Positions 1 through 18,488 are shown, counted from the first letter of the stretch. The stretch: 22,166 nt of DNA from Thermostichus sp. DRC_bins_24 (GCA_039794845.1 JAUQVK010000113.1:1-22166), one strand, 5' to 3'. Notes: a model not told the origin generated them from the letters alone. Numbers and translations are program-made.

Positions 1-1118
1 CGTTTGCAACGGACTTGAGAGGGGTGAGGAGGTCGCTCAATTTATCTTCTTGTCGATGAGACTGGGGATCCTAAGAAAGGAAAGTCAACAGGCTATGTGG
101 CTCGCCAATATATTGGGAGGTTGGGAAAGATTGAGAATGGGATTGTGTCTGTTTCAGTTTGGGGTGTTGTGGACAACCTTGTTTTCCCGCTAGTATTCGA
201 CCTCTACAAGCCGGAGAATCGGCAAGAAGGTAATGGAAAAGGGATTTGTAGTGGACTTGGTATGTGCAGACAGCCTTTACGGTGAGAGCAGCACTTTTCT
301 GAATGGGTTAGAAGAGATGGGGCTGGAATATATTGTCTCAATTCGCAGTAACCATGGGGTGTGGATGCTGCCTGGGGAGAGAGTAAGGCGTAGTCGATGG
401 AGACGTTTTGAGCGAATCTTTGCAGATGGGACGAAAGAGGAGAGATACATCCGGGAGCTGATTTTCGGCCACAGGATGGAGAAGAGATACTGGGAGCTGA
501 CAAAAGACCCCAAAGAGCTGCCAGAGGAAGGGACATTTTATTGAATGACCAAGAAAAGGGAGATTGATTACAGCCCTTTCGCTAGTCACATGTAACAGCT
601 ATGGAGGTTGAAACCCACCTCCTGGAGGGCTGAGGAAGCATAAACCCTGCTGTAGAAAACCCGCGCAAGGGCTGTATCAGGGGATAGGAAACCTATACGG
701 GATGAGAAGTTGGATTGAGTATGGATACAAGCAGAGTCAAGATGAGCTGGGCTGGGCTGACTACCGCCTAACCCATTATCAGGATATCGAGAAGTGGTGG
801 GAGCTGGTGTATCATGCCCTGCTGCTTGTCGGCTTTATCGGTGATGGAAACCGGAAGAATAAGACAAGATCTAGAGAAGAAGAAACTAGGGAGGAGTTCA
901 GGAACAATCCGAGGTGGGAAGAGGGAAAGAGTTGGAAGAGCCAATTGAACAACCTGCATGTGCTGATTGAGCCTTGGAACTATTTGAGCAATCTTGCGAG
1001 TTGGTTGAGAGTTTATACTATTCCTGAACTATCGATAGGTCTATCCCGACTCATCGAGAAGTTAAATTCATCCCGATGGCCTTGGATGTCTACCTCAATT
1101 CTGTTCTCCTCTGCTTAG
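1..1118 (+). pseudogene. IS701-family DDE transposase, inactivated (5' end outside window)
   Basis: Frame from base 1 reads LLVDETGDPKKGK..VARQYIGRLGKIENGIVSV, followed by LVCADSLYGES (233..544) and RSWIEYGYKQSQDELGWADYRLTHYQDIEKWWELV (702..1118), all typical of cyanobacterial IS701. Lesions: stops at 16-18, 25-27 and 542-544, a frameshift/deletion near 220-233, and a MITE at 571-674. GTGACGAAAGAGGCG (1120-1134) is the likely right end. Confidence 0.9.
571..674 (+). mobile_element. MITE copy 1, 104-bp short form, TA target duplication
   Basis: TA|CAGCCCTTTCGC...GCGCAAGGGCTG|TA. Deleting it plus one TA rejoins the IS701 frame (EIDY-QGIGNLYG-MRSW). Confidence 0.93.
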
Positions 1119-1236
1119 AGTGACGAAAGAGGCGTAATTAGCGAAAGCGCTGTACCTGGATTTCAGGCAAGAGATGGGCAAGGGATCGGTGAGCGGCAGA
1201 GCTGACCAGTCGCTGCACCTGACTTTACAGCCCTTT

Positions 1237-1260
1237 ACGCCCGGGGCACACCGGCGTGAC
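1237..1260 (+). repeat. 24-nt small dispersed insertion (family B) in MITE 2
   Basis: ACGCCCGGGGCACACCGGCGTGAC is absent from MITE copies 1 and 4 and is 22/24 identical to 6018-6041. Confidence 0.8.
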
Positions 1261-1325
1261 CGCTAGTCATATGTAATAGTCATATGTAACAACTGCGGAA
1301 GTTGAGATCCACTCTCTAGAGGGCT

Positions 1326-1352
1326 AGTGCTCCGCACCTCGCGGAGCGAGAA
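1326..1352 (+). repeat. 27-nt double-hairpin insertion (family A) in MITE 2
   Basis: A-GTGC-TCC-GCAC-CTCGC-GGA-GCGAG-AA, absent from MITE copies 1 and 4. Confidence 0.85.
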
Positions 1353-1436
1353 CAGGACGCACAATTTCTGATATAGAAAACCCGCGCAAGGGCTGTAAGC
1401 TAGATTTGTCCCGATGTTTCAGTTTGTTTCTGGCAA

Positions 1437-2822
1437 GTGAGTTCCACGTTGGAAGTAGTCCCTTCTCCCGCTTCGGTCTCGGCCCCCAAGTCGGTTGCCC
1501 TCCTGCACTTGGGCTGTGAGAAAAACCGGGTGGATACGGAGCACATGTTGGGGTTGTTGGTTACAGCAGGCTACCGAGTCGATGGGGATGAAGAGACTGC
1601 AGATTACGTCATCGTCAACACCTGCAGCTTTATCGAGGCGGCGCGGCGCGAGTCGGTGCGCACCCTGATGGAATTGGCAGTACAGGGCAAAAAGATCGTG
1701 ATCTCAGGGTGCTTGGCCCAACACTTTCAGCAGCAGCTCCTAGACGAGATCCCGGAAGCCGTAGCCTTGGTGGGCACCGGTGACTACCACCAGATTGTGC
1801 AGGTGATTGAGCGGGTGGAGCGGGGGGAACGGGTGAATGCCGTCACCGCCAGTCTCGACTACATTGCCGACGAAACCGTACCGCGCTACCGCACCACCCA
1901 TGCTCCCGTGGCCTATTTGCGGGTGGCAGAGGGTTGCGACTACCGCTGCGCTTTCTGTATCATTCCCCATCTGCGGGGCAACCAACGCTCCCGTTCCATT
2001 GAGTCGATCGTGCAGGAAGCTCAGCACCTGGCTGCCGAAGGGGTGCAGGAGTTGATCCTCATCTCACAAATCACCACCAACTACGGGTTGGATCGGTACG
2101 GAGAACCGCGACTGGCGGAGCTGATTCGCGCCTTGGGCCAAGTTGACATCCCCTGGATCCGCATGCTCTATGCCTACCCAACTGGGCTCACCCCCCCAGT
2201 CTTGGAGGCGATTCAAGAAACCCCCAATGTTTTGCCCTATCTCGATCTGCCCCTTCAGCATAGCCATCCAGAGGTGCTCAAGGCCATGAATCGTCCCTGG
2301 CAAGGGCAAGTGAACGACCGGGTGATCGAGCGCCTACGCCAAACTTTGCCCAATGCGGTGCTGCGGACCACCTTCATCGTCGGCTTTCCGGGGGAGACCG
2401 AAGCGCATTTTCAGCATCTGCTGGAGTTCGTGCAACGCCACCAATTCGACCATGTTGGGGTTTTTACCTTCTCGCCCGAAGAGGGTACCCCCGCCTACAA
2501 CCGTCCCGATCCGATCCCCGAGTCGGTGAAACAGGAGCGCCGAGCGCGTCTGATGCAGGTGCAGCAGGGCATTGCTTTCCGCCGGAACCGCGAGCAGGTG
2601 GGCCAGATCGTGCCCGTGCTTTTGGAGCAGGAAAACCCCCAAACCGGAGAGTGGATTGGCCGTTCCCCCCGCTTTGCCCCCGAGGTGGATGGGGTGGTGT
2701 ATGTGCGGGGCAGAGGTTCGCTGGGATCCCTAGTGCCTGTGCAGATTACGCGGGCTGAACCCTACGATCTGTTTGGCCAAGTGGTGGCAGCCCCGGAGGG
2801 CTTTGGTTGGAGCGGGCGGTAG
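1437..2822 (+). CDS. rimO: Ribosomal protein S12 methylthiotransferase RimO
   Basis: [22 protein letters not shown], radical-SAM motif [13 protein letters not shown] and C-terminal TRAM domain with APEVDG. Confidence 0.96.
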
Positions 2823-2939
2823 AGCCTCCATTTGCGGTTGGGGGGTGGTGTAGTGGCGGGTAACTGAAGGGAGCAATTCGATAAAATGACAGAGCACACG
2901 CTGACGAGCCTTGCAGGATATCCATAACTGGACTCCATG

Positions 2940-3143
2940 AGCAGAAACGTGATTTGTAGAGGATCTGTGCCCTCTGTCTGCGGTGGGGCGCATCGTGGAC
3001 GTAAAACAAACAGCCTGCGGAGGCGTTCTGACCGGGGATGCTGGTGCTCCGTACTTGTGTAGCAAGAACGAGCAAGCTTGTGCATCTAGGCGTGAGCCAG
3101 TGAAGCAGGAATCTCACTCTGTACCCCAGAGGGAGAGCGTCAA
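2940..3143 (+). mobile_element. IS200/IS605 3' remnant: tnpB C-terminal tail plus right end / omegaRNA scaffold
   Basis: Encodes AVGRIVDVKQTACGGVLTG (TnpB-tail-like). GCCTGCGGAG...GAAGCAGGAATCTCAC...GAGAGCGTCAA matches the usual right-end layout ending in TCAA. Left boundary uncertain. Confidence 0.72.
3043..3068 (+). repeat. Family A double-hairpin insertion, 26-nt degenerate copy
   Basis: G-GTGC-TCC-GTAC-TTGT-GTA-GCAAG-AA. Removal restores the hairpin GATGC-T-CGAGC-AA-GCTTG-T-GCATC. Confidence 0.72.
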
Positions 3144-3218
3144 ACTGCAAGTGCGTTGACCTCTGCCCCAGCAGAAGGATTTGTGCAGGCACAAGCCGCT
3201 ACGTGAGAGGAACTGCAA

Positions 3219-3911
3219 ATGGCCACTCAAGACGAACTCAAGCAAGCTGCGGCTCGGGCTGCTGCCCACAAGGTGCAGTCGGGGATGGTGGTGGGCTTGG
3301 GCACGGGATCTACGGCAGCGTTTGCGGTGAGTGCCTTGGCAGAGCGGATGCGAACTGAGGGATTGAAGCTAATCGGGGTGCCTACCTCCGTTCGCACCGC
3401 AGAACAGGCTCGCTCCCTCGGGATCCCGTTGGCCACTCTGGAAGAGCAGCCCCATTTGGATATGGCCATTGACGGGGCGGATGAGATCGAGGTTGGATCC
3501 CTGAATTTGATCAAGGGTGCGGGTGGGGCTTTGCTGCGGGAAAAATTGGTGGAGGCCAGCGCTGCTGAGCTGATCATCATCGCCGATGCCTCGAAAAAAG
3601 TGACGCAACTGGGCACGCACTTCCCTCTGCCGGTGGAGGTGGTGCGGTTTGGCTGGAAAGCCACCTTTGCCCGCGTGGAGGCGATCGGATGTACCCCGGT
3701 TCTCAGATTGGATCAGGCAGGGGATCCCTACCTGACGGATGAACAGCACTACATTCTTGACTGTCAGTTTGGCCCGATGACGGATCCCGCTAGGATCGCC
3801 GATCAACTGAAGGGCACTGTTGGGGTGGTGGAGCATGGCCTGTTCATTGGCATGGCCAAAGAGGCGATCATCGCGCTGCCGGACGGGATCGAAACCCTAC
3901 GTCCTGCTTGA
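3219..3911 (+). CDS. rpiA: Ribose-5-phosphate isomerase A
   Basis: VGLGTGSTA, DGADEI, LIKGAGGALLREK and GVVEHGLF motifs, with GAGAGG RBS upstream. Confidence 0.97.
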   Translation: MATQDELKQAAARAAAHKVQSGMVVGLGTGSTAAFAVSALAERMRTEGLKLIGVPTSVRTAEQARSLGIPLATLEEQPHLDMAIDGADEIEVGSLNLIKGAGGALLREKLVEASAAELIIIADASKKVTQLGTHFPLPVEVVRFGWKATFARVEAIGCTPVLRLDQAGDPYLTDEQHYILDCQFGPMTDPARIADQLKGTVGVVEHGLFIGMAKEAIIALPDGIETLRPA

Positions 3912-3996
3912 GTGGTTTTGGCGCAACAGGCGGGCTGGACTGACCAACCGGTTCAAGACTTCCAGTTCAACACTCATATAGTTGCTCTCCCGCTTC

Positions 3997-4663
3997 ATGC
4001 TTGTTCTGGAAACCAAGCTCAGAGGTAATCCCACCCAGTTTGCAGCACTGGATGAGGCGATGACCCTCCGGGTCGTGCGGAGCACGATTAGAACGGCTCA
4101 GTTCATTCGCAACAAGTGTGTGCGCTACTGGATGGAGAACAGAGGGGTAGGGCAATACGACCTCTCCAAACTCTGTGCTGTATGGGCCAAGGAATTTGCC
4201 TGGGCCGGCAAGCTCAATTCAATGGCCAGACAGGCCGGCGCGGAACGGGCTTGGTCTGCCATCAAGCGGTTCTACGACAATTGCAAAGCCAAGAAGCCAG
4301 GAAAGCAGGGCTTTCCTAAGTTCAAGAAGAATAGCCGCTCCGTGGAATACAAAACCTCTGGGTGGAAGCTCTCTCCTGAGCGGACGCATCTCACCTTCAC
4401 CGATGGCTTCAAGGCTGGAACCTTTTTGCTGGTAGGAGCTAGGGATCTCCACTTCTACCCAATTTCGCAAATCAAGCGGGTTCGGGTGGTGCGTAAGGCG
4501 GATTATGCTCAGTTCTGTGTTGCGGTTGACCGACAAGAAACGATTCAACCAACAGGTAAGGCGGTTGGCATTGACCTGGGGTTGAAGTCTTTCTACAAGG
4601 CAGCCGATAGCACTGAGGTCGAAACTCCTAAGTTCCCGAGAAAGGCGGAACACAAACTGAGGA
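3997..4663 (+). pseudogene. tnpB: TnpB (IS200/IS605 RNA-guided nuclease), 3'-truncated
   Basis: MLVLETKL..IRTAQFIRNKCVRYWM..GFPKFKK..SVEYKTSGWKL..RuvC-I VGIDLGLK. Similarity stops after KAEHKLR, with no RuvC-II/III, Zn finger or right end. The ORF runs on into unrelated sequence to 4776. Confidence 0.9.
4062..4088 (+). repeat. Family A 27-nt double-hairpin insertion in tnpB, in frame
   Basis: G-ACCC-TCC-GGGT-CGTGC-GGA-GCACG-AT. Removal converts ALDEA-MTLRVVRST-IRTAQF into ALDEAIRTAQF. Confidence 0.87.
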
Positions 4664-4861
4664 ATAGAGGATCCCTATCCTATGCTCTGCCTACGGCACC
4701 CTTTTGCTCCCCAATGGCGGGAACCCCACAACCCGGAGGGATCCCAGCGGTAGTAGGTAACGCTGGAAAAGGCTAGATGTGCAGATTTTCAAATCGTCGG
4801 CTTCTTAGGCTTTGAATGGGGCTATTGCTGCTATCGGTTGGAAGGCCAGGGGGATCCATCC

Positions 4862-5629
4862 CTAGAAAATATCCTGGTTCAACAATTTGGTCAGGCGTTC
4901 CAGCCCTTTCTTTACCTGACGGGAAACCGTAACGGCACTGATCCCCAGTCGCTCTGCGGTTTCTTTTTGAGTGAGATCGTAGAAAAAGACAAACTCCAGA
5001 ATGGTGCGGGTACGTTGTTCCAGCTTGGCAAGGGCATTTTGCAGGCGAATGCGATCTTCTTCTGCCAGTTGAAAGCTGCGGTAGCGCTGATCGGGAACGA
5101 TATCCCCCAAGGCCACACTGTCCTCCTCGGTTTGGATCGGGGCATCGAGGCTGAGCAAGAGGCTATTTTGTTGAGCCAGCTCCATCTCCCGCCATTCCTG
5201 CTCCGTCAGCTGTAGGGCTTCTCTCACCTCCGTCTCGTAGGGAGGACGGCCCAACTCCTGCCGCAACTGGGCGATCACCTTCTTGGCCTGCCGTTGCAGC
5301 GTGGCCCAGCGGCGCGGGATCCGCATCGTCGGGCTTTTGTCCCGCAGATAGTGTTGGATCTCCCCCCGGATGTAGGGTATGGCAAAGGAGCTAAAGGCCA
5401 AACCACGGGTAATATCGAAGCGCTCGATCGCTTGAATCAGCCCCAAACACCCGATCTGCATCAGGTCGTCGTAGCCCTCTGCACATTGGTTGCGCCAGTG
5501 GTGGGCCTCTTTGCGTACCAAGCCCAGGTTCATTTCCACCAAGCGGTTGCGCAAGTGGGGATCCGGACGTTGATGGTAGAGACGCAGCAGTTCGGCGGTA
5601 CGAGTTTTGACGTCCTCGGTAGATGCCAT
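4862..5629 (-). CDS. sigF: RNA polymerase sigma factor SigF (group 3)
   Basis: LRNRLVEMNLGLVRK, YDDLMQIGCLGLIQAIERFD, FSSFAIPYIRGEIQHYLRDK, FFYDLTQKETAERLGISAVTVSR. Start chosen by typical SigF length. ATG at 5743 is an alternative. Confidence 0.9.
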   Translation of the reverse strand: MASTEDVKTRTAELLRLYHQRPDPHLRNRLVEMNLGLVRKEAHHWRNQCAEGYDDLMQIGCLGLIQAIERFDITRGLAFSSFAIPYIRGEIQHYLRDKSPTMRIPRRWATLQRQAKKVIAQLRQELGRPPYETEVREALQLTEQEWREMELAQQNSLLLSLDAPIQTEEDSVALGDIVPDQRYRSFQLAEEDRIRLQNALAKLEQRTRTILEFVFFYDLTQKETAERLGISAVTVSRQVKKGLERLTKLLNQDIF

Positions 5630-6017
5630 AGTGCCAGACGCGACTCGACGAGATCCGGAATCGCAAAGAAGAGTACAGGACAAGGGCAACGGAGTCAGGG
5701 CTATGGGTGGAGAAGAGGGAAGGTGGAGAGCATTGGTTACCATCAGGGATCCCCTTGACTCAAAAAGCAGACCAAAGCCAATATCCAAAGACCCAACAGA
5801 GGAACTTATCCAGCTGCCGGAGCCATGAAGCGAAGCGCAAAAGCTGCCAAACTCCTTAGCAAGAGCACTTCTCAAGCCAGATGTTCTTAGTTTGACCAGG
5901 TTTGGGAACCAAAGCAACGGCATCCCTACGGAAAATGCCCCGCTTGCATCAGCAAGAGAGCGTAATTTTACGCCAATATTCGACTAATTGTCCGTTTTTT
6001 TACTACTACAGCCCCTT

Positions 6018-6041
6018 ACGCCCAGGGCACACCGGCGTGCC
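6018..6041 (+). repeat. 24-nt family B insertion in MITE 3
   Basis: ACGCCCAGGGCACACCGGCGTGCC, at the same site as in MITE 2. Confidence 0.8.
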
Positions 6042-6093
6042 TGCGAGTCACGTGTAACAACTGTGGGGGTTGAGATCCACTCTCTAGAAGGAT

Positions 6094-6121
6094 AACCCTC
6101 CGGGCCCCGCGAAAGCGGGAG
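6094..6121 (+). repeat. Family A double-hairpin insertion in MITE 3 (28 nt)
   Basis: A-ACCC-TCC-GGGC-CCCGC-GAAA-GCGGG-AG, at the same site as in MITE 2 but with different stems. Confidence 0.82.
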
Positions 6122-6205
6122 TAGGAATTACAATCTCTGCTGTAGAAAACCCGCGCAAGGGCTGTAACTCGATCTTGCGCACGGTCATCCGGACATCTTC
6201 TGCCC

Positions 6206-7363
6206 TCAGGAGGCCACCGACCTGGCAGCGGGATCCCACCTTGCTAAGAAGTCTTTAAAACTCGGCTCACTGCGGATCAGGTCGAAGTAGGGCTCAGAAA
6301 ACAGCAAAGGACCGTAGTGGTCTGGTTGCAACTGCAGGGCTCGCTCCAAGGCTTGTAGGGCTTGGGGCACTTGCCCTTCCCAGGCACAGCAGCAGGCTTT
6401 GGAGTAGTGGGCTTCGGCCTCGTCAGGATCCAGCTGGAGGGCGCGATCCAAACTTTGCCTGGCCAGCTCGTGGAGGTTCAAATCCATCAGTGCCAGTCCG
6501 CGATAGACCCAAATCTGGCCCCGTTCGGGATCCCGTTCGAGGGCACGATCGTAGCTGTTCAGGGCCTCCATAGGGTTGCCGAGGCGGTGATGGGCAAGGC
6601 CGTGGCTAGCCCAGAGGGTGGCGGAGTCCGGCCCCAGTTGGAGGGCCCGTTCGTAGCTGGCCAACGCATCCGCGTAGCGTTCCAGCCGAAACAGGGCCAG
6701 CCCGCGACTTTGCCAAACCCGAGCATCGACGGGGTTGATGGCGATGGCTTTGTCGTAGCTGATCAAGGATCCCTCCCAGCGGCCCAGAGAGGCCAAGGTC
6801 AGCCCGTGCAGGTACCAAGTCTCCGGGCTGTCGGGGCTAATGGTGAGGGCACGATGGTAGGCGCGCAGGGCCTCTTCTCCCCGACCCATTTCCCGGAGAG
6901 TATTGGCTTGGTTAAAGCAGGCCTCGAAAAAATCCGGCTTCAGTTGTAGGGCACGGTCGTAACTGGCCAGGGCTTCTTGGTGGCGGCCCAGCTCGTCAAG
7001 GGCGGAGGCGCGGTTGTTCCAGGCTTGGGGAAAATCCGGTTTCAGCTCCAGGGCACGGTCGTAGTTGGCGAGTGCTTCTTGGGTTTGCCCCATTTGGTCG
7101 AGGAGGGTGCCGCGGTTGTACCAGGCAATGGGATCCAGCGGCTGCACTGCCAGAGCTCGGTCGAAGGGATCCAACTGGGCGGCCTGTTCCGGAGAGAGAG
7201 CCGTCGGTTGTGGTGGGATAACCGATTTCGCGTCGCTAGAAACAGCTCGGTTGCGGCGTCCCAATCGCCAGGCCCAGCCGCCCGCCAGAAGCAGCAGGCC
7301 CACCCCCAGCCCCAACACCCCCAGGTCTTGGGGGGCAACCCCAACCCCAAATGGCATGATCAA
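6206..7363 (-). CDS. Membrane-anchored tetratricopeptide repeat protein
   Basis: N-terminal hydrophobic helix followed by RLGRR, then eight 34-aa repeats (e.g. AWYNRG..EALANYDRALELKP). GAGGAG RBS upstream. Confidence 0.92.
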   Translation of the reverse strand: MIMPFGVGVAPQDLGVLGLGVGLLLLAGGWAWRLGRRNRAVSSDAKSVIPPQPTALSPEQAAQLDPFDRALAVQPLDPIAWYNRGTLLDQMGQTQEALANYDRALELKPDFPQAWNNRASALDELGRHQEALASYDRALQLKPDFFEACFNQANTLREMGRGEEALRAYHRALTISPDSPETWYLHGLTLASLGRWEGSLISYDKAIAINPVDARVWQSRGLALFRLERYADALASYERALQLGPDSATLWASHGLAHHRLGNPMEALNSYDRALERDPERGQIWVYRGLALMDLNLHELARQSLDRALQLDPDEAEAHYSKACCCAWEGQVPQALQALERALQLQPDHYGPLLFSEPYFDLIRSEPSFKDFLARWDPAARSVAS

Positions 7364-7373
7364 CTCCTCATCT

Positions 7374-7679
7374 TCACAACATCACCAGAAACGGCAATGG
7401 ATCGCTCGGCCCTGCTGCCGAGATCAGCTCAATGCGCTTTTCCCCCGGATAGGTGCTGGTGTCGATTTCAAAAGTCACCGTCAGCTGGTTGGGGCCGCTC
7501 TGCACCGGTTCTTTCGCTTGCCCCAGGGGATCCCCGAAGCTGACCCGGATCCCTTTACCCGCCGGACTCACCCGAATCTCTGTCACCTGATCCAGATGGG
7601 ATCCCTCCAGGGTACAGACAATAACATCCCCCACAAAAGCTTCTAGGGGCCAACCGCGTTGTACTTCTGGTCTAGGCAT
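7374..7679 (-). CDS. Small hypothetical protein, probable Ig-like (IPT/TIG-like) fold
   Basis: 101 aa with alternating beta-strand pattern (CTLEGSHL, QLTVTFEI, SDPLPFLV). Lies 10 bp upstream of the TPR gene, with an AT-rich region upstream. Confidence 0.72.
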   Translation of the reverse strand: MPRPEVQRGWPLEAFVGDVIVCTLEGSHLDQVTEIRVSPAGKGIRVSFGDPLGQAKEPVQSGPNQLTVTFEIDTSTYPGEKRIELISAAGPSDPLPFLVML

Positions 7680-7687
7680 TTCGATTT

Positions 7688-7732
7688 CACCTATTCCACC
7701 TATTCCAAGTGTTCTGATTCCAAGTGTTCTGA
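7688..7732. repeat. Two overlapping short tandem duplications
   Basis: CACCTATTC x2 (7688-7705) and ATTCCAAGTGTTCTG x2 (7702-7731). Confidence 0.85.
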
Positions 7733-7800
7733 CTCTTTATTTTTGTATTTTTGTTTATGGTTTTTTATTGGGGTATTTTACGATCCCTGTTGAATCGATT

Positions 7801-8601
7801 TCAATCCTCCAAGCCAAAGCTACCGGGATGACAGATGGCTTCCTCCCCCGTAGGGGTGGCACTGGCCCAACCCTCCGAAGAACTCGGTGGAGCAGGAGCT
7901 GGGTTTACCGCCGTACCCCGCAGCACCACCTTTTGATCTGCCCCGACACTCACCAGGCGCGGCAACTCCCCCAGGCTATCGGCCACCGCAAACAGCACCC
8001 GCTCTTGGGCCTGGGGATCCCAACCGAGCAGCTGAGTGTAGCCCAGTACCGGCGGCGGATCCCAGATTTGTACCGGCGGGATCTCTGCAGAAGAGGCAGG
8101 TAAGGGCCAGATCACGGCTCGATCCCAGCTCAAATCCGTCTGGAACCAGCCTTCGTACTCGCGGGCCAACAGGGTGTGATCTCGCCACGCCAGGGGCAGG
8201 ATCATGGCAAAATCCAGGGGCTCCCAGGGATCAAGCACAGAAGCCGAGGCCTGATAGAGCACTTGCAGTGTTCGAGTACGGGTATTCTCAGCAAACAGTA
8301 CGCTCGTCAACCTGCCCATCTGTGGGGTAGCCACCAAGTCCAGCCGTGTGTACACCTGCCATTCGGGATTTGGTGATGGCAAAGGCTCGCTGCGCAACAG
8401 ACCAACCATCGTGCATTGTCGCTGCTGGGCTTGGTCCCGCAATCCGTACACCCAGTCCCAGGGGATCGAGACGGCAGCCGCAAGATAAGTTGCAGAGGAG
8501 CGGATCCCGGCTTGTAAAGACGCGCCTGGAGCAGCCCATACCGAGCCAGCCCAGCTCGCCCAGATGGCCACGAGTACTTTAACCAGCCCATTTCGCCTCA
8601 T
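7801..8601 (-). CDS. Hypothetical exported protein
   Basis: Long ORF directly downstream of hisD. MRRNGLVKVLVAIWASWAGSVWA looks like a signal peptide. Start could be as early as GTG 8655. Confidence 0.7.
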   Translation of the reverse strand: MRRNGLVKVLVAIWASWAGSVWAAPGASLQAGIRSSATYLAAAVSIPWDWVYGLRDQAQQRQCTMVGLLRSEPLPSPNPEWQVYTRLDLVATPQMGRLTSVLFAENTRTRTLQVLYQASASVLDPWEPLDFAMILPLAWRDHTLLAREYEGWFQTDLSWDRAVIWPLPASSAEIPPVQIWDPPPVLGYTQLLGWDPQAQERVLFAVADSLGELPRLVSVGADQKVVLRGTAVNPAPAPPSSSEGWASATPTGEEAICHPGSFGLED

Positions 8602-8655
8602 CTGATCCGCCATCCACCTCACCTGCTTGTGTTCGACAACGGCTACAAGGCTCAC

Positions 8656-9969
8656 TTAGTCGTCTTCCGTCAACCGCAGCTGCACCGACTGGCCATGGGC
8701 CGGCAACCCCTCCGCCTGGGTGAGGGCCTGAATGGCCCCTGCCACCTCTCGCAAAGCCATGGAGCCGTACTGGATCAGGCTGGAATGCTTGAGAAAGGTT
8801 TCCACCCCCAAAGCGGAAGCATAACGAGCTGCCCCGGCGGTGGGCAAGGTGTGGTTGGGGCCTGCTAGATAATCCCCCACTGCTTCTGGGGTGTGGTGTC
8901 CCAAGAAAATCGCCCCTGCATGGCGAATCGGCTCCAACAACGCCCAGGGATCCGCCACCTGCAACTCCAAGTGCTCTGGGGCAAACAGGTTAGACAGCAC
9001 CACCGCTGTGGCCAGATCCGGCACCACAGCAATTAACCCATAATTGACCACCGACTTTTCCACCATCAGACGGTTGGGATGGGTTTCAATTTGGATCGCC
9101 ACCGCCTGTTGCACCTGCTGGGCCAACTTCGGATCCGGGGTTAGGAGGATTGCCGCTGCCAGAGGATCATGTTCTGCCTGGGCCAGCAAATCGGCTGCCA
9201 AATGGGTGGGATTGGCACTCTCATCGGCGATGATCAACACCTCCGAAGGCCCCGCCAGCGAGTCGATGCCCACCGTGCCGTACACCTGCTTTTTGGCCAA
9301 AGTGACGTAGATGTTTCCGGGGCCGGTGATCACATCCACCTTGGGAATCGTCTCGGTGCCGTAGGCCAGCGCCCCAATCGCCTGCGCCCCGCCGACGCGG
9401 TAGATGGTTTGGATCCCGGCTTCTTGGGCGGCCACCAAGATTGCCGGGCTGATCCCTTTCCCGCCCGAGCCATCGGATCCCGGCGGCGTCACCAGGACAA
9501 TTTCCGGCACCCCTGCCACCTGAGCGGGAATGGCGTTCATCAACACGGTGCTGGGATAGGCGGCGCGCCCCCCGGGAACGTAAAGACCGGCGCGATCCAC
9601 AGGGCGATATTGCTTGCCCAAGACGATCTCGGGGGCAGGGAAACTCACCCAACTGCTGGGCACCCGCTGCCGGTGAAAGGCCTCAATGCGCTGTTTGGCC
9701 AGGCGAAGAGCAGCCAGAAGCTGGGGAGACACCGCCTGATAGGCTGCCTCCAGTTCTGCGCCCGATACCTTCAGCTCAGACACACTTAGCTCTACTTGAT
9801 CAAACTCTGCGGTGTAATCCAGCAAAGCCCGATCCCCTTGACGGCGCACCGATTGCAGAATCTCCCGCACCGTCGCTTCACGATGAATGTTCTGGTCGGC
9901 TTGCGTGCGCTCCGAGATCCGTCTGAGCTCGGCTTCAGCCTCGGTCAGCTGGGTGACGATTCTCAGCAT
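8656..9969 (-). CDS. hisD: Histidinol dehydrogenase
   Basis: [55 protein letters not shown]. Start at MLRIVTQ. Confidence 0.97.
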
Positions 9970-10200
9970 GGCAACTCCAAGGTAACGAAGGATCCAGCGG
10001 CATCGCGGCAGCAAAATACCGATCTTTACCACCGTCCCGGTTGTCGGCTAAAACCCGCGGAGCAACCCCTGGGCAGGATCCCCTTTAGGCCAAGCGGTAG
10101 CCGGGTTGGATATGGTCATAGCTTAGCCTGTATTTCCGGCAGCCAAGAACTTGACAGAAGCCTTCCATCGCCTCCTTTCCGAAGGATTCCGCTGCGACTC

Positions 10201-10950
10201 CTACAGACCCAGCTCCGCCGTTTTGATTAGGTTGCGAAAATCGTGTATCACCCCTTCACAGCGGCGGAAAAAAGCCAGTACCCAATCCCGCAGCACCTTC
10301 TGCTGAGATTCATCCAGCTCCTTCAGGAGGCCGCCGTAGCGGATCTGGCCGCTGCGCTCGATCTCGAACTGATTGAGCCATTCTGCCTCCAACCCCCGGT
10401 GTTGCAACACCTCCTGTCGGGCTGCTTTCCAGTAGTTAACGATCACTGCTTTGCCCAAATAGCCCGTTGTAATCTGACAGAGACGGTTCAGGGAGCGCAT
10501 AAACGTCTCCATTTCCATAGATGTACCAGCAGCGGAGGTAGGGGCGGCCGTGGGCTGAGTGGCGTTGGAGCTAGCCTCCATTTGACTGCTGAAGAGGCGA
10601 AAAGTCGCCAGGCCCTTTTGGGTATCCCGCTGCAATTCCGTGCGTAGGCGGTTTACCGCCAAACTGTAGATGGGCATCACCAGGTCATCGCCCACCGCCA
10701 CCAGCAACACCCACTCAGTGCTCAGGGGATAGACAAACACCCGTTGCTCGGCAAACTGAAAGTCAAAATAGTCAAACCCCTGCGGCATCGTCTCCAAGAC
10801 TTGAAACAATCCCTGGGTTAGAGCCTGCTGCTGGCGAGAATCCAGATTTTGAAAAGAACGGTAGAAACAAGGGCGCCCCGTGGGGCTCAGTAGCGCCACT
10901 CCCATCACCCCTTGAATGGACAAAAAGCGCTCGAGGATTTCTTTCTCCAT
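10201..10950 (-). CDS. Hypothetical protein, N-terminus possibly roadblock/LC7-like
   Basis: 249-aa ORF from MEKEILERFLSIQGVMGVALLSPTG. The fold call is pattern-based inference. Confidence 0.75.
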   Translation of the reverse strand: MEKEILERFLSIQGVMGVALLSPTGRPCFYRSFQNLDSRQQQALTQGLFQVLETMPQGFDYFDFQFAEQRVFVYPLSTEWVLLVAVGDDLVMPIYSLAVNRLRTELQRDTQKGLATFRLFSSQMEASSNATQPTAAPTSAAGTSMEMETFMRSLNRLCQITTGYLGKAVIVNYWKAARQEVLQHRGLEAEWLNQFEIERSGQIRYGGLLKELDESQQKVLRDWVLAFFRRCEGVIHDFRNLIKTAELGL

Positions 10951-11536
10951 ACCTATTGGGAGATAGCTTGAGAGATCTGTCGAGATCATTGAGCGATGAT
11001 CACATCCTTAATATCCTGACTTAGTTTGCCCGAGGATGGGTCAGCGAAATTGACGAATGCTTAAAACGGGAAGACAGAGCTTCAGTTGGTCCACCAGCTT
11101 AATTGGCTGCAGCCCGTGAAACCAGAATGCGGGCATTTTTCAGCTAGGGCAGCAGGAGCCCCGCACCCTACCCCTTCGAGGGGGGGTCGGGAGGAATGCG
11201 CCGCCGGCAGCGGGATGAAATAACACAAACCAACTCCTGACCATCTCTTGCAAGCTCAAGGTATCCGAATCGCAGGCCGCAAAACTGGATGCGACTCCGG
11301 AGGCGTTTGGGCAGGTATTGAACTGGGTTAACCAGAACACACCCGAGAAGATGGTCAATGCCCTCAAGCTGCAATCCCTTTGCTACCACGAGATTCGCAC
11401 TCACTTTGGCCTGTCGAGCAACTTGGCTTTACAGGTTTGCAGGGGAGTCGCCGGTTCTCGGAAGGTGGCCAAACAAAAGCATCGCCCGGTCAAAGCGGTC
11501 AAGTCGGATTTTCTCGTTTCGGGAAAGAGACCGGAC

Positions 11537-11560
11537 GGCTCGCCGGAGCCGGGTGAGCAC
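11537..11560 (-). repeat. 24-nt in-frame insertion in tnpB, probable family B
   Basis: Adds 8 codons to FRERD-R-TVSLTT. Reverse complement GTGCTCACCCGGCTCCGGCGAGCC is 14/24 identical to the MITE 3 insert and shares CCGGCG(A/T)GCC. AC at both junctions makes the boundary uncertain by 2 nt. Confidence 0.68.
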
Positions 11561-11617
11561 AGTTTCACTCACCACCGTTGATGGGCGTGAGCGGTTTGGG
11601 TTGGCCATCGGCAATTA

Positions 11618-11721
11618 CAGCCCTTGCGCGGGTTTTCTGCAGCAAGGATTGTGCTTCCTCAGCCTTCTAGAGAGAGGATCCTAACTCCCACAGTTGTTAT
11701 ACGTGACTAGCGAAAGGGCTG
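11618..11721 (-). mobile_element. MITE copy 4, 104-bp short form, inverted, inside tnpB
   Basis: TA|CAGCCCTTGCGC...GCGAAAGGGCTG|TA. Removal rejoins GN-Y-QQGML in frame. Confidence 0.93.
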
Positions 11722-11967
11722 TACCAACAGGGAATGCTGAACAGTTGGGCGTTCCACCGGTTGAGGGGGTTCATTGAGTACAAAGCTTTGAGGGCGGGTG
11801 TGAAGGTTGTTGCGGTCAATCCGGCCTACACCGGTCAAACGTGCCACCGATGTCTGCGTATTCACCCGGATGTCGATAAGTTCTATCGGAGGGGTAAGCG
11901 GTTTGGGTGTGGGCATTGGGGTTGGCAGGGGGATGGGGCTTTTAACGGGGCCAAGAACCTTCAATCC

Positions 11968-11994
11968 ATCTCACGAAGCGGGGTGCAGAGCACC
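11968..11994 (-). repeat. Family A 27-nt insertion, degenerate, minus strand
   Basis: Reverse complement G-GTGC-TCT-GCAC-CCCGC-TTC-GTGAG-AT. Removing these 9 codons gives GAKNLQSTGLSVIQPGGS. Confidence 0.72.
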
Positions 11995-12380
11995 ACCGGG
12001 CTGTCGGTAATACAGCCTGGAGGCTCCTGGTTATCCTGTGGGTTGAAGGAGATAGGCGGAGGGCTACTGAAGGGCTTTTGGAAAGCCCGCGACTGCGTAA
12101 GCCGTCAGCCTCGGGAAGACATTACGAGATCTTTACCACCTCACCCCCAGTGATGCGCAGTGGCTGCTGTTGCTGTGCTGTCGGTCACTGCTACTGGGGG
12201 CGGAAGAAGTGCGCAAGAAGAAGTGCACAAATTGTGGATGGGCCGAGGCAGGGGATCCCGTTAGGCTTCGTTGGGCGCAAGGGATCCCATCGGCCCGGTT
12301 GATCCCTGCCCTCCCTCCGGCTGGGGGATGACCTTCGCAGACTAGGATGAACGGTATTCGTTTTCAGCCGATGGTTCCCC

Positions 12381-18023: not shown

Positions 18024-18488
18024 ATGGTCATGGATGCTTCTGCTGCTCAATCCAGCCTGCCTCGCTTGGTCTTGATCATCACCGATCAGATGGGTCGCCG
18101 CGGCGTTGTTTTGGATGGCATTTACTACTCCGTGGGTCGTGCCCCTAGCAACCATATTCGTCTCTACGACTCCTGCGTCTCGCGGGAACATGCCCTGATC
18201 ATCCGCATTCCTGAAGAGAATCAGGCTGGTTACAGCTACATGGTGTTCGATGGCAGCCCTGGCTCCCGTCGCAGCACCAACGGCTTGTTTGTGAATGGCA
18301 AAGCGGTCTTGTCGCACCCCTTGAAGCTGTTTGACAAGGTGGGGTTTGGCCCCAACGTGACGGCGATTGTGGAGACCACCGACCGTCTCACCCCGGAAAC
18401 TTTGGCGGGCCTGTTGAAACCTCCGGTTCCTGCCGGCAACACCACGCTGGTGGGATCCAAAGAGACCAAGGGGTTTACCGCCGCCTGA
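18024..18488 (+). CDS. FHA domain protein
   Basis: SVGR..VSREHA..STNGLFVNG FHA motifs. Confidence 0.92.
   Translation: MVMDASAAQSSLPRLVLIITDQMGRRGVVLDGIYYSVGRAPSNHIRLYDSCVSREHALIIRIPEENQAGYSYMVFDGSPGSRRSTNGLFVNGKAVLSHPLKLFDKVGFGPNVTAIVETTDRLTPETLAGLLKPPVPAGNTTLVGSKETKGFTAA

Follow-up and report, generated by a model that had tools for sequence, protein, structure and literature searches.

A probable family of 26–28-nt inserted elements with two abutting mini-hairpins in Thermostichus sp. DRC_bins_24

Family A copies and their insertion sites

Within a 22,166-nt stretch of DNA from Thermostichus sp. DRC_bins_24 (GCA_039794845.1 JAUQVK010000113.1:1-22166; the whole of this stretch is called the window), five segments of 26–28 nt share a layout of two abutting mini-hairpins, and we regard them with high confidence as a real family of inserted elements, herein named family A. 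The inserts had been picked out in an original prediction made from the sequence alone, and all five were found where it had placed them (Table 1), with their letters exactly as transcribed. Alignment of the five copies using MAFFT (28 columns) resolved a common layout that consists of a purine, a 4-bp stem with a 3-nt loop, an abutting 5-bp stem with a 3–4-nt loop, and a closing A-N, the flanking single bases being 1 nt ahead of hairpin 1 and 2 nt beyond hairpin 2. Although this layout had been proposed for every copy, it fits in full at 1326, 4062 and 6094 (9/9, 9/9 and 8/9 pairs, respectively), whereas copy 11968 deviates by changed loops (TCT and TTC) and one C.A mismatch, and copy 3043 by its length and by the loss of one base from the 3′ arm of stem 1. 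Hairpin 2 of copy 3043 (CTTGT/GCAAG with a GTA loop) is wholly paired including one wobble, and it pairs better than the earlier parsing implied. The loop of hairpin 1 is TCC in four of the five copies (TCT in 11968), while the loop of hairpin 2 reads GGA in two copies and GAAA, GTA and TTC in one copy each. As the original prediction had it, the copies lack coding capacity and terminal inverted repeats and do not show target duplication consistently, and every one of them follows GNT (GCT, GCT, GAT, GAT and GGT), a motif found at 7.3% of window positions as background. A 3-nt target duplication was considered as a rule and rejected, being complete at 4062 only (GAT/GAT).

Two copies are nested in MITEs (miniature transposable elements with inverted repeats) of a single family, which has four copies in 12 kb, a mutual identity of 79–85%, TA flanks and inverted ends. 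When the four window copies were aligned, the family A segment was present in two of them and was matched by a clean gap in the other two, with the boundary at 1326 ambiguous by 1 nt (a G of the empty copies is replaced). An exact 20-nt search with the MITE end recovered 0 stretches from 185,579 representative genomes, a plasmid collection gave distant TnpB matches only for the whole window and none for the MITE, and a protein search with the MITE-spanning reading frame produced no candidate for further MITE copies. Each filled MITE also holds a second small insert (24–25 nt, beginning ACGCCC) that is missing in both empty ones; the two are 22/25 identical and form a single weak hairpin (z about −0.5), and they may represent another family resembling the small dispersed repeats (SDRs) discussed below. 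A 13-nt tandem duplication (TAGTCATATGTAA, twice) is found at 1262–1287 within the first of these MITEs.

Two further copies add exactly nine codons each to relics of TnpB genes. The nine residues contributed by the 4062 copy are missing in 17/17 aligned homologues covering the region; among P0001 and its 120 listed homologues, P0001 is the only one with residues in the insert columns; and the site is empty in 8/8 homologous DNA loci examined, one of them the sole contig labelled Thermostichus. The exact junction can shift by 3 nt (GAT). The nine residues at 11968 are likewise missing in 18/18 homologues of TnpB relic 2 and in 5/6 closer homologues, and one TnpB protein, P0275, carries a different insertion about three codons from this site. 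None of the three outcomes that would have spoken against the original prediction was seen: empty alleles exist, the aligned TnpB homologues lack the nine codons, and the window is enriched over shuffled sequence (see below).

Further copies may be reflected in two TnpB proteins that bear the name 'Thermostichus vulcanus' in nr, namely P0022, which has a 9-residue insertion, and P0275, which has a 9-residue and an 8-residue insertion, in each case at TnpB positions that differ from the ones occupied in the window. Both 9-residue insertions can be back-translated to the full family A layout, compared with a background of 109 of 75,735 9-residue windows; one of them fits in the frame of 4062, and the other combines GTGC/TCC/GCAC with a new stem 2. 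At the site filled in P0275 the window relic is empty, and at the site filled in the window P0275 is empty. The 8-residue insertion of P0275 was rejected as a copy: its first four residues are the same as in the 9-residue one, yet it has no back-translation to the full layout. The organism behind both proteins is uncertain because 'Thermostichus vulcanus' covers strains of two lineages in the NCBI taxonomy. The N-terminus of P0022 and the C-terminus of P0275, which are otherwise unrelated TnpB-derived proteins, share the peptide AVP-x-RVSV, a hint that a further repeated DNA element, perhaps a related MITE end, lies at their borders.

The copy at 3043 is treated as a probable family member because it is identical to 1326 in 20/27 columns, and we regard it as a candidate insertion only. 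Its in-silico removal lets the flanks form a short imperfect hairpin, and the filled form pairs into a longer hairpin with the right flank. Palindromes abound in the surrounding segment (3037–3086), which has a CAAGCTTG core as well as a long, imperfect hairpin taking in part of the insert and could itself serve as a regulatory or terminator structure.

Table 1. Family A copies and the elements that host them, or correspond to empty hosts, in the window.
Feature	Coordinates	Strand	Description
Family A copy	1326..1352	+	27 nt; hairpins GTGC/TCC/GCAC and CTCGC/GGA/GCGAG; nested in MITE; 38.5 bits (five-copy covariance model)
Probable degenerate family A copy	3043..3068	+	26 nt; stem 1 minus one base; rimO-rpiA spacer
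Family A copy	4062..4088	+	27 nt = nine codons; ACCC/TCC/GGGT and CGTGC/GGA/GCACG; within TnpB relic 1
Family A copy	6094..6121	+	28 nt; GAAA loop; nested in second MITE copy, same MITE position as 1326
Family A copy	11968..11994	-	27 nt = nine codons, antisense to gene; within TnpB relic 2
Filled MITE	1226..1397	+	TA-flanked, inverted ends beginning CAGCCC; hosts 1326 copy and 24–25-nt insert 1237-1261
Filled MITE	6007..6166	+	Hosts 6094 copy and second small insert 6018-6042
Empty MITE	569..676	+	Empty allele; itself inserted in IS701-family transposase relic
Empty MITE	11616..11723	-	Empty allele; inserted in TnpB relic 2
TnpB (IS605 OrfB) relic 1	3997..4776	+	Internally deleted, truncated; hosts 4062 copy
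TnpB relic 2	11222..12153	+	N-terminal piece, MITE, C-terminal TNB-domain piece; hosts 11968 copy

Recovery of held-out copies and covariation of the stems

As an independent test of the family, a hold-out covariance model was trained on copies 1326 and 4062 alone. Its top three non-training matches in the window were the remaining copies, i.e., 6094 (22.1 bits, E 0.006), 3043 (16.6 bits, E 0.095) and 11968 (15.1 bits, E 0.2), the last of these with 27-nt limits identical to those of the nine-codon indel. When all five copies were used to build the model, they scored 29.9–38.5 bits, while the next unrelated match in the window scored 14.8 bits and the best match in 1.04 Mb of other bacterial loci scored 16.8 bits. 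This control set comprised 66 loci from a TnpB-based scan, nearly all from other cyanobacteria and Chloroflexi, of which the only one labelled Thermostichus is a 3.9-kb locus (L061); in the analysis they document empty sites and provide a negative control rather than a census. The five-copy model found no sixth copy, longer copy or isolated half-element in the 22-kb window, and a weak match at 18417–18456, which requires a 16-nt insertion and falls within an FHA-domain gene, was set aside as chance. Rfam and tRNA scans of the window gave no match.

A strict descriptor of the layout, with a TCC loop, a G..A loop and no fewer than 8 of the 9 pairs, gave 5 strand-hits in the window, equal to 3 loci, against a mean of 0.29 and a maximum of 3 in 300 dinucleotide shuffles, and none of the shuffles reached 5 (0/300). 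The window is thus enriched over shuffled controls, although the test is post hoc because the descriptor was derived from these same copies. Double mini-hairpins with any loops showed no enrichment (19 in the window vs. a shuffle mean of 17.0).

The stems vary between copies while mostly staying paired, as had been claimed: standard pairs occupy 95.5% of the 44 stem cells in the five copies, compared with 22–51% when the partners were slid, and compensatory changes on both sides were seen in 5/9 pairs. The observed covariation score was reached by 0/500 shuffles, in a test with n=5 sequences and a structure that was itself derived from the same five. Trained on the same two copies, a sequence-only model gave E 0.43 for 6094 (6.8 bits) and E 3.3 for 3043 (4.3 bits) and did not list 11968, so that adding structure improved the hold-out E-values ~35–70-fold for two copies. 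Since the left-out copies were recovered only when structure was scored, structure carries most of the generalising signal. The original description of the family as defined by structure rather than sequence nevertheless goes too far, because the copies are 44–74% identical in pairs, hairpin modules are repeated, and 9 of the 27 columns are invariant across all five, including the 3′ GA, the C-G pair on the outside of hairpin 2, the one that closes hairpin 1 and two of the three bases of loop 1; a fair statement is that family A has a conserved core with covarying stems.

Two hairpin modules recur. GTGC/TCC/GCAC is exact in 1326, differs by one change each in 3043 and 11968, and occurs on the opposite strand of 4062, whilst ACCC/TCC/GGGY is common to 4062 and 6094. 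Across the copies the pairings are GTGC+CTCGC, ACCC+CGTGC, ACCC+CCCGC and GTGC+CCCGC, i.e., sequence modules recur and re-assort between copies. The element is moreover quasi-symmetric, in that its reverse complement likewise reads stem-TCC-stem, stem-GGA-stem due to the two loops being complementary. The order of a 4-bp stem followed by a 5-bp stem, along with the 1-nt and 2-nt overhangs, supports the orientations picked in the original prediction.

Possible route of movement and rival explanations

For the spread of family A we lean tentatively, and with slightly less than even confidence, towards SDR-like non-autonomous elements of 26–28 nt that are inserted after GNT without target duplication and moved as a folded single strand by a trans-acting HUH/Y1-type enzyme. 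Each copy consists of two abutting GC-rich mini-hairpins, whose stem interiors are free to vary provided that they stay paired; if only copies with folding hairpins propagate, the element would be handled as a folded single strand. The mover would most likely be a trans-acting, structure-reading transposase or nuclease for single-stranded DNA (ssDNA) of the HUH/Y1 type (e.g., IS200/IS605 TnpA or RAYT), and copies would persist mainly in DNA that is not under selection, such as MITEs, TnpB relics and spacers. End hairpins combined with a fixed short 5′ target and no duplication are the signature of HUH/Y1 single-strand transposition, in which IS200/IS605 TnpA and RAYT cut and join DNA beside hairpins and place the element 3′ of a short target that is not duplicated. 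All five copies lie within 1326–11994, in MITEs, TnpB relics and one spacer, and the model places no copy in 12–22 kb, a stretch of mostly housekeeping-type genes, which fits a tolerance of inserts only where selection is absent. That a trans-acting enzyme reads the shape is something we purely infer, and the more specific proposal that the mover is an HUH-type single-strand enzyme is rather doubtful.

Several points weigh against this reading or against the family as such. The family rests on only five DNA copies, all of them within one 22-kb window, and the extra copies suggested for P0022 and P0275 are inferred from protein letters only. In the 1.04 Mb of control loci the hold-out model reached 15.7 bits at best, and by score alone 3043 and 11968 do no better than this control match. 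Folding energy is ordinary in 4/5 copies (z-scores −1.2 to −1.7), and copy 1326 (z = −3.6) favours one 7-bp hairpin formed from the complementary TCC/GGA loop regions; folding energy was consequently dropped as support, given that the only copy to stand out does so as one hairpin, not two. The long hairpin that would instead join the TCC and GGA regions can form in only 2/5 copies. The original prediction had credited every copy with insertion evidence of its own, which is true of four copies (two in MITEs and two in TnpB relics) but is weak for 3043, and the MITE pair may reflect one ancestral event instead of two independent insertions, since the inserts sit at one and the same point of the MITE and the G found there in the empty copies is missing from both filled ones. 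The two MITE inserts are, however, only 66.7% identical (18/27) compared with 85.6% (113/132) for the rest of both MITEs (Fisher p = 0.027), and this greater divergence is more in keeping with a preferred site that was hit twice, or whose insert was replaced. As for the mover, none of the genes in the window is of the HUH, RAYT, IS110 or reverse-transcriptase type, which leaves it with no candidate enzyme, and 27 nt is too short to hold the guide and cleavage spacing of IS200/IS605 ends.

The latter two points leave room for another route, by which a real mobile family would have spread as a reverse-transcribed RNA copy or by means of a structure- or RNA-guided recombinase (IS110-like or integrase-like). 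Covarying hairpins suit an RNA intermediate as well as ssDNA, the element falls below the size of the canonical IS200/IS605 end architecture, and an HUH gene is not found nearby in the window; but the copies show neither a poly-A or primer-like tail nor a target duplication, they match no Rfam family, and reverse-transcriptase and IS110 genes are equally missing from the window; we rate this route as unlikely. The re-assorted modules would also be in line with 27-mers made by fusion of the two ends, left and right, of a larger parent element, either minimal deletion derivatives or uniform excision scars, as suggested by the two-module architecture and by the fact that non-autonomous derivatives of insertion sequences usually arise by such deletion. 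Random deletions or scars would vary in length, whereas all copies measure 26–28 nt and have directly abutting hairpins, and the five-copy model detected no longer copy or half-element in the window and nothing in the 1.04 Mb of other genomes; we therefore consider fused ends to be quite improbable.

It is very unlikely that the segments are non-mobile, i.e., filler or templated insertions from break repair or template switching at quasi-palindromes, which are alike through a common source or bias. Hairpin 2 of 3043 does have two 6-mers in common with a palindrome in its right flank, and the sites lie in decaying DNA; against this stand the same length, the nine invariant columns, the common TCC loop and identical modules at unlinked sites, the conserved GNT upstream, and the same layout implied in the proteins of another record set, and repair would not yield stems that covary around fixed loops. 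A mere chance resemblance between GC-rich, hairpin-prone segments, with no family at all, would be compatible with generic double mini-hairpins being as frequent in shuffles as in the window and with mostly unremarkable folding energies, but we judge it extremely unlikely because the hold-out model picks segments that the indel evidence independently marks as inserted (with identical limits at 11968), no shuffle reaches the descriptor count, and nothing exceeds 16.8 bits in the controls. At the opposite end, the single-strand transposition reading can be taken further, to a family A that is among the smallest mobile DNA elements known, a 27-nt two-hairpin module read mainly by shape, with stems free to compensate, modules re-assorting, and enough activity in Thermostichales to pepper every TnpB relic examined; in this far-reaching form we find it hard to credit.

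Relation to known small repeats

The SDRs SDR4, SDR5 and SDR6 were reportedly described in Nostocaceae by Elhai et al. in 2008. At 26–28 nt and non-coding, the family A copies agree with SDR size (about 21–27 nt), and precise insertion, another SDR trait, is attested by the filled and empty MITE copies and by the TnpB homologues at both protein and DNA level. As the SDRs are described (also in PMC5861425), both groups are tens of nucleotides long, non-coding, precisely inserted, nested in other repeats, cyanobacterial and, for family A as far as the window goes, dispersed, and have a mover that is not known; they differ in that SDRs belong to Nostocaceae and family A to a thermophile type rich in GGGATCCC, the comparison being one of descriptions and not of sequence. 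The density of family A, as far as the window goes, is five copies in 22 kb. SDR5 measures 21 nt and its function is still called unknown in PMC13756078, and PMC4390886 places its insertion between bases 3 and 4 of HIP1. In the window, none of the five sites lies in a local GGGATCCC palindrome and HIP1 (GCGATCGC) occurs 0 times, the target of family A being GNT; given its 3-nt ambiguity, the 4062 site can also be read as GCG^AT, although this is no more than suggestive.

The palindrome content of the window informs on its lineage. GGGATCCC occurs 27 times (about 1200 per Mb) and GGATCC 73 times. In Elhai 2015 (PMC4390886), GGGATCCC is tabulated at 1160 and 1345 for Synechococcus OS types A and B and is the dominant octamer in both genomes, with such palindromes generally numbering 1000–2000 per million nucleotides. 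A window that is rich in GGGATCCC and free of HIP1 thus matches the signature of the hot-spring Synechococcus types A and B.

Compared with other classes of small repeats, family A resembles the non-autonomous derivatives of IS200/IS605 in its hairpins (at the ends in those derivatives), its insertion 3′ of a short target, and the lack of terminal inverted repeats and target duplication, and its hosts include IS605-family TnpB relics. Such derivatives are roughly 100 nt or more in size, with guide and cleavage sequences spaced from the hairpin feet, whereas family A copies are 26–28 nt with no such spacing, and there is no TnpA gene in the window. Rickettsia palindromic elements, which are selfish, hairpin-forming, about 100–150 bp long and found in frame in functional genes, likewise place hairpins in frame in coding sequence, but the hosts of family A are dead genes in a different phylum. 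Classical MITEs differ through terminal inverted repeats and target-site duplication, neither of which family A has and both of which are present in its TA-flanked host MITE. REP sequences are described as GC-rich hairpin repeats of 20–40 nt that are thought to be spread by a hairpin-reading domesticated HUH enzyme (PMC3116915, PMC3733652, PMC6006769). REP/REPIN are single palindromes with a terminal GTAG or CGTC, typically arranged as inverted extragenic doublets beside a RAYT gene; family A, in contrast, has two different abutting hairpins and no terminal tag, and is solitary and found inside gene relics. Family A therefore fails the defining features of REP/REPIN, of classical MITEs and of canonical IS200/IS605 derivatives. 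We found no earlier description of such elements in this lineage in the literature, many subscription papers being outside our reach.

How elements of 21–28 nt move has been a standing question since the Nostoc SDRs (2008), and a second, unrelated lineage with such elements would give a comparative handle on the mover. Family A is clearly marked by its structure, inserts at a short target (GNT) and has hosts with clean empty alleles, and since hot-spring mats are deeply sequenced, filled/empty polymorphism could, if the reading is true, reveal the mover, possibly a new structure-guided ssDNA insertion enzyme. For annotation, too, the inserts are of consequence: gene relics gain nine codons in frame and MITE families are broken up, which may mislead gene and repeat callers.

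Beyond the inserts themselves, each TnpB relic has lost large internal parts, and in some homologues of relic 2 (e.g., P0125, 217 aa) an N-terminal piece is likewise fused to a C-terminal one, suggesting that a deleted TnpB form is being propagated. Private insertions of 7–18 residues were seen at various sites in P0018, P0026, P0031, P0038 and P0077, which are TnpB homologues from other cyanobacteria, and small insertions nested in TnpB genes may be a common feature of cyanobacteria.

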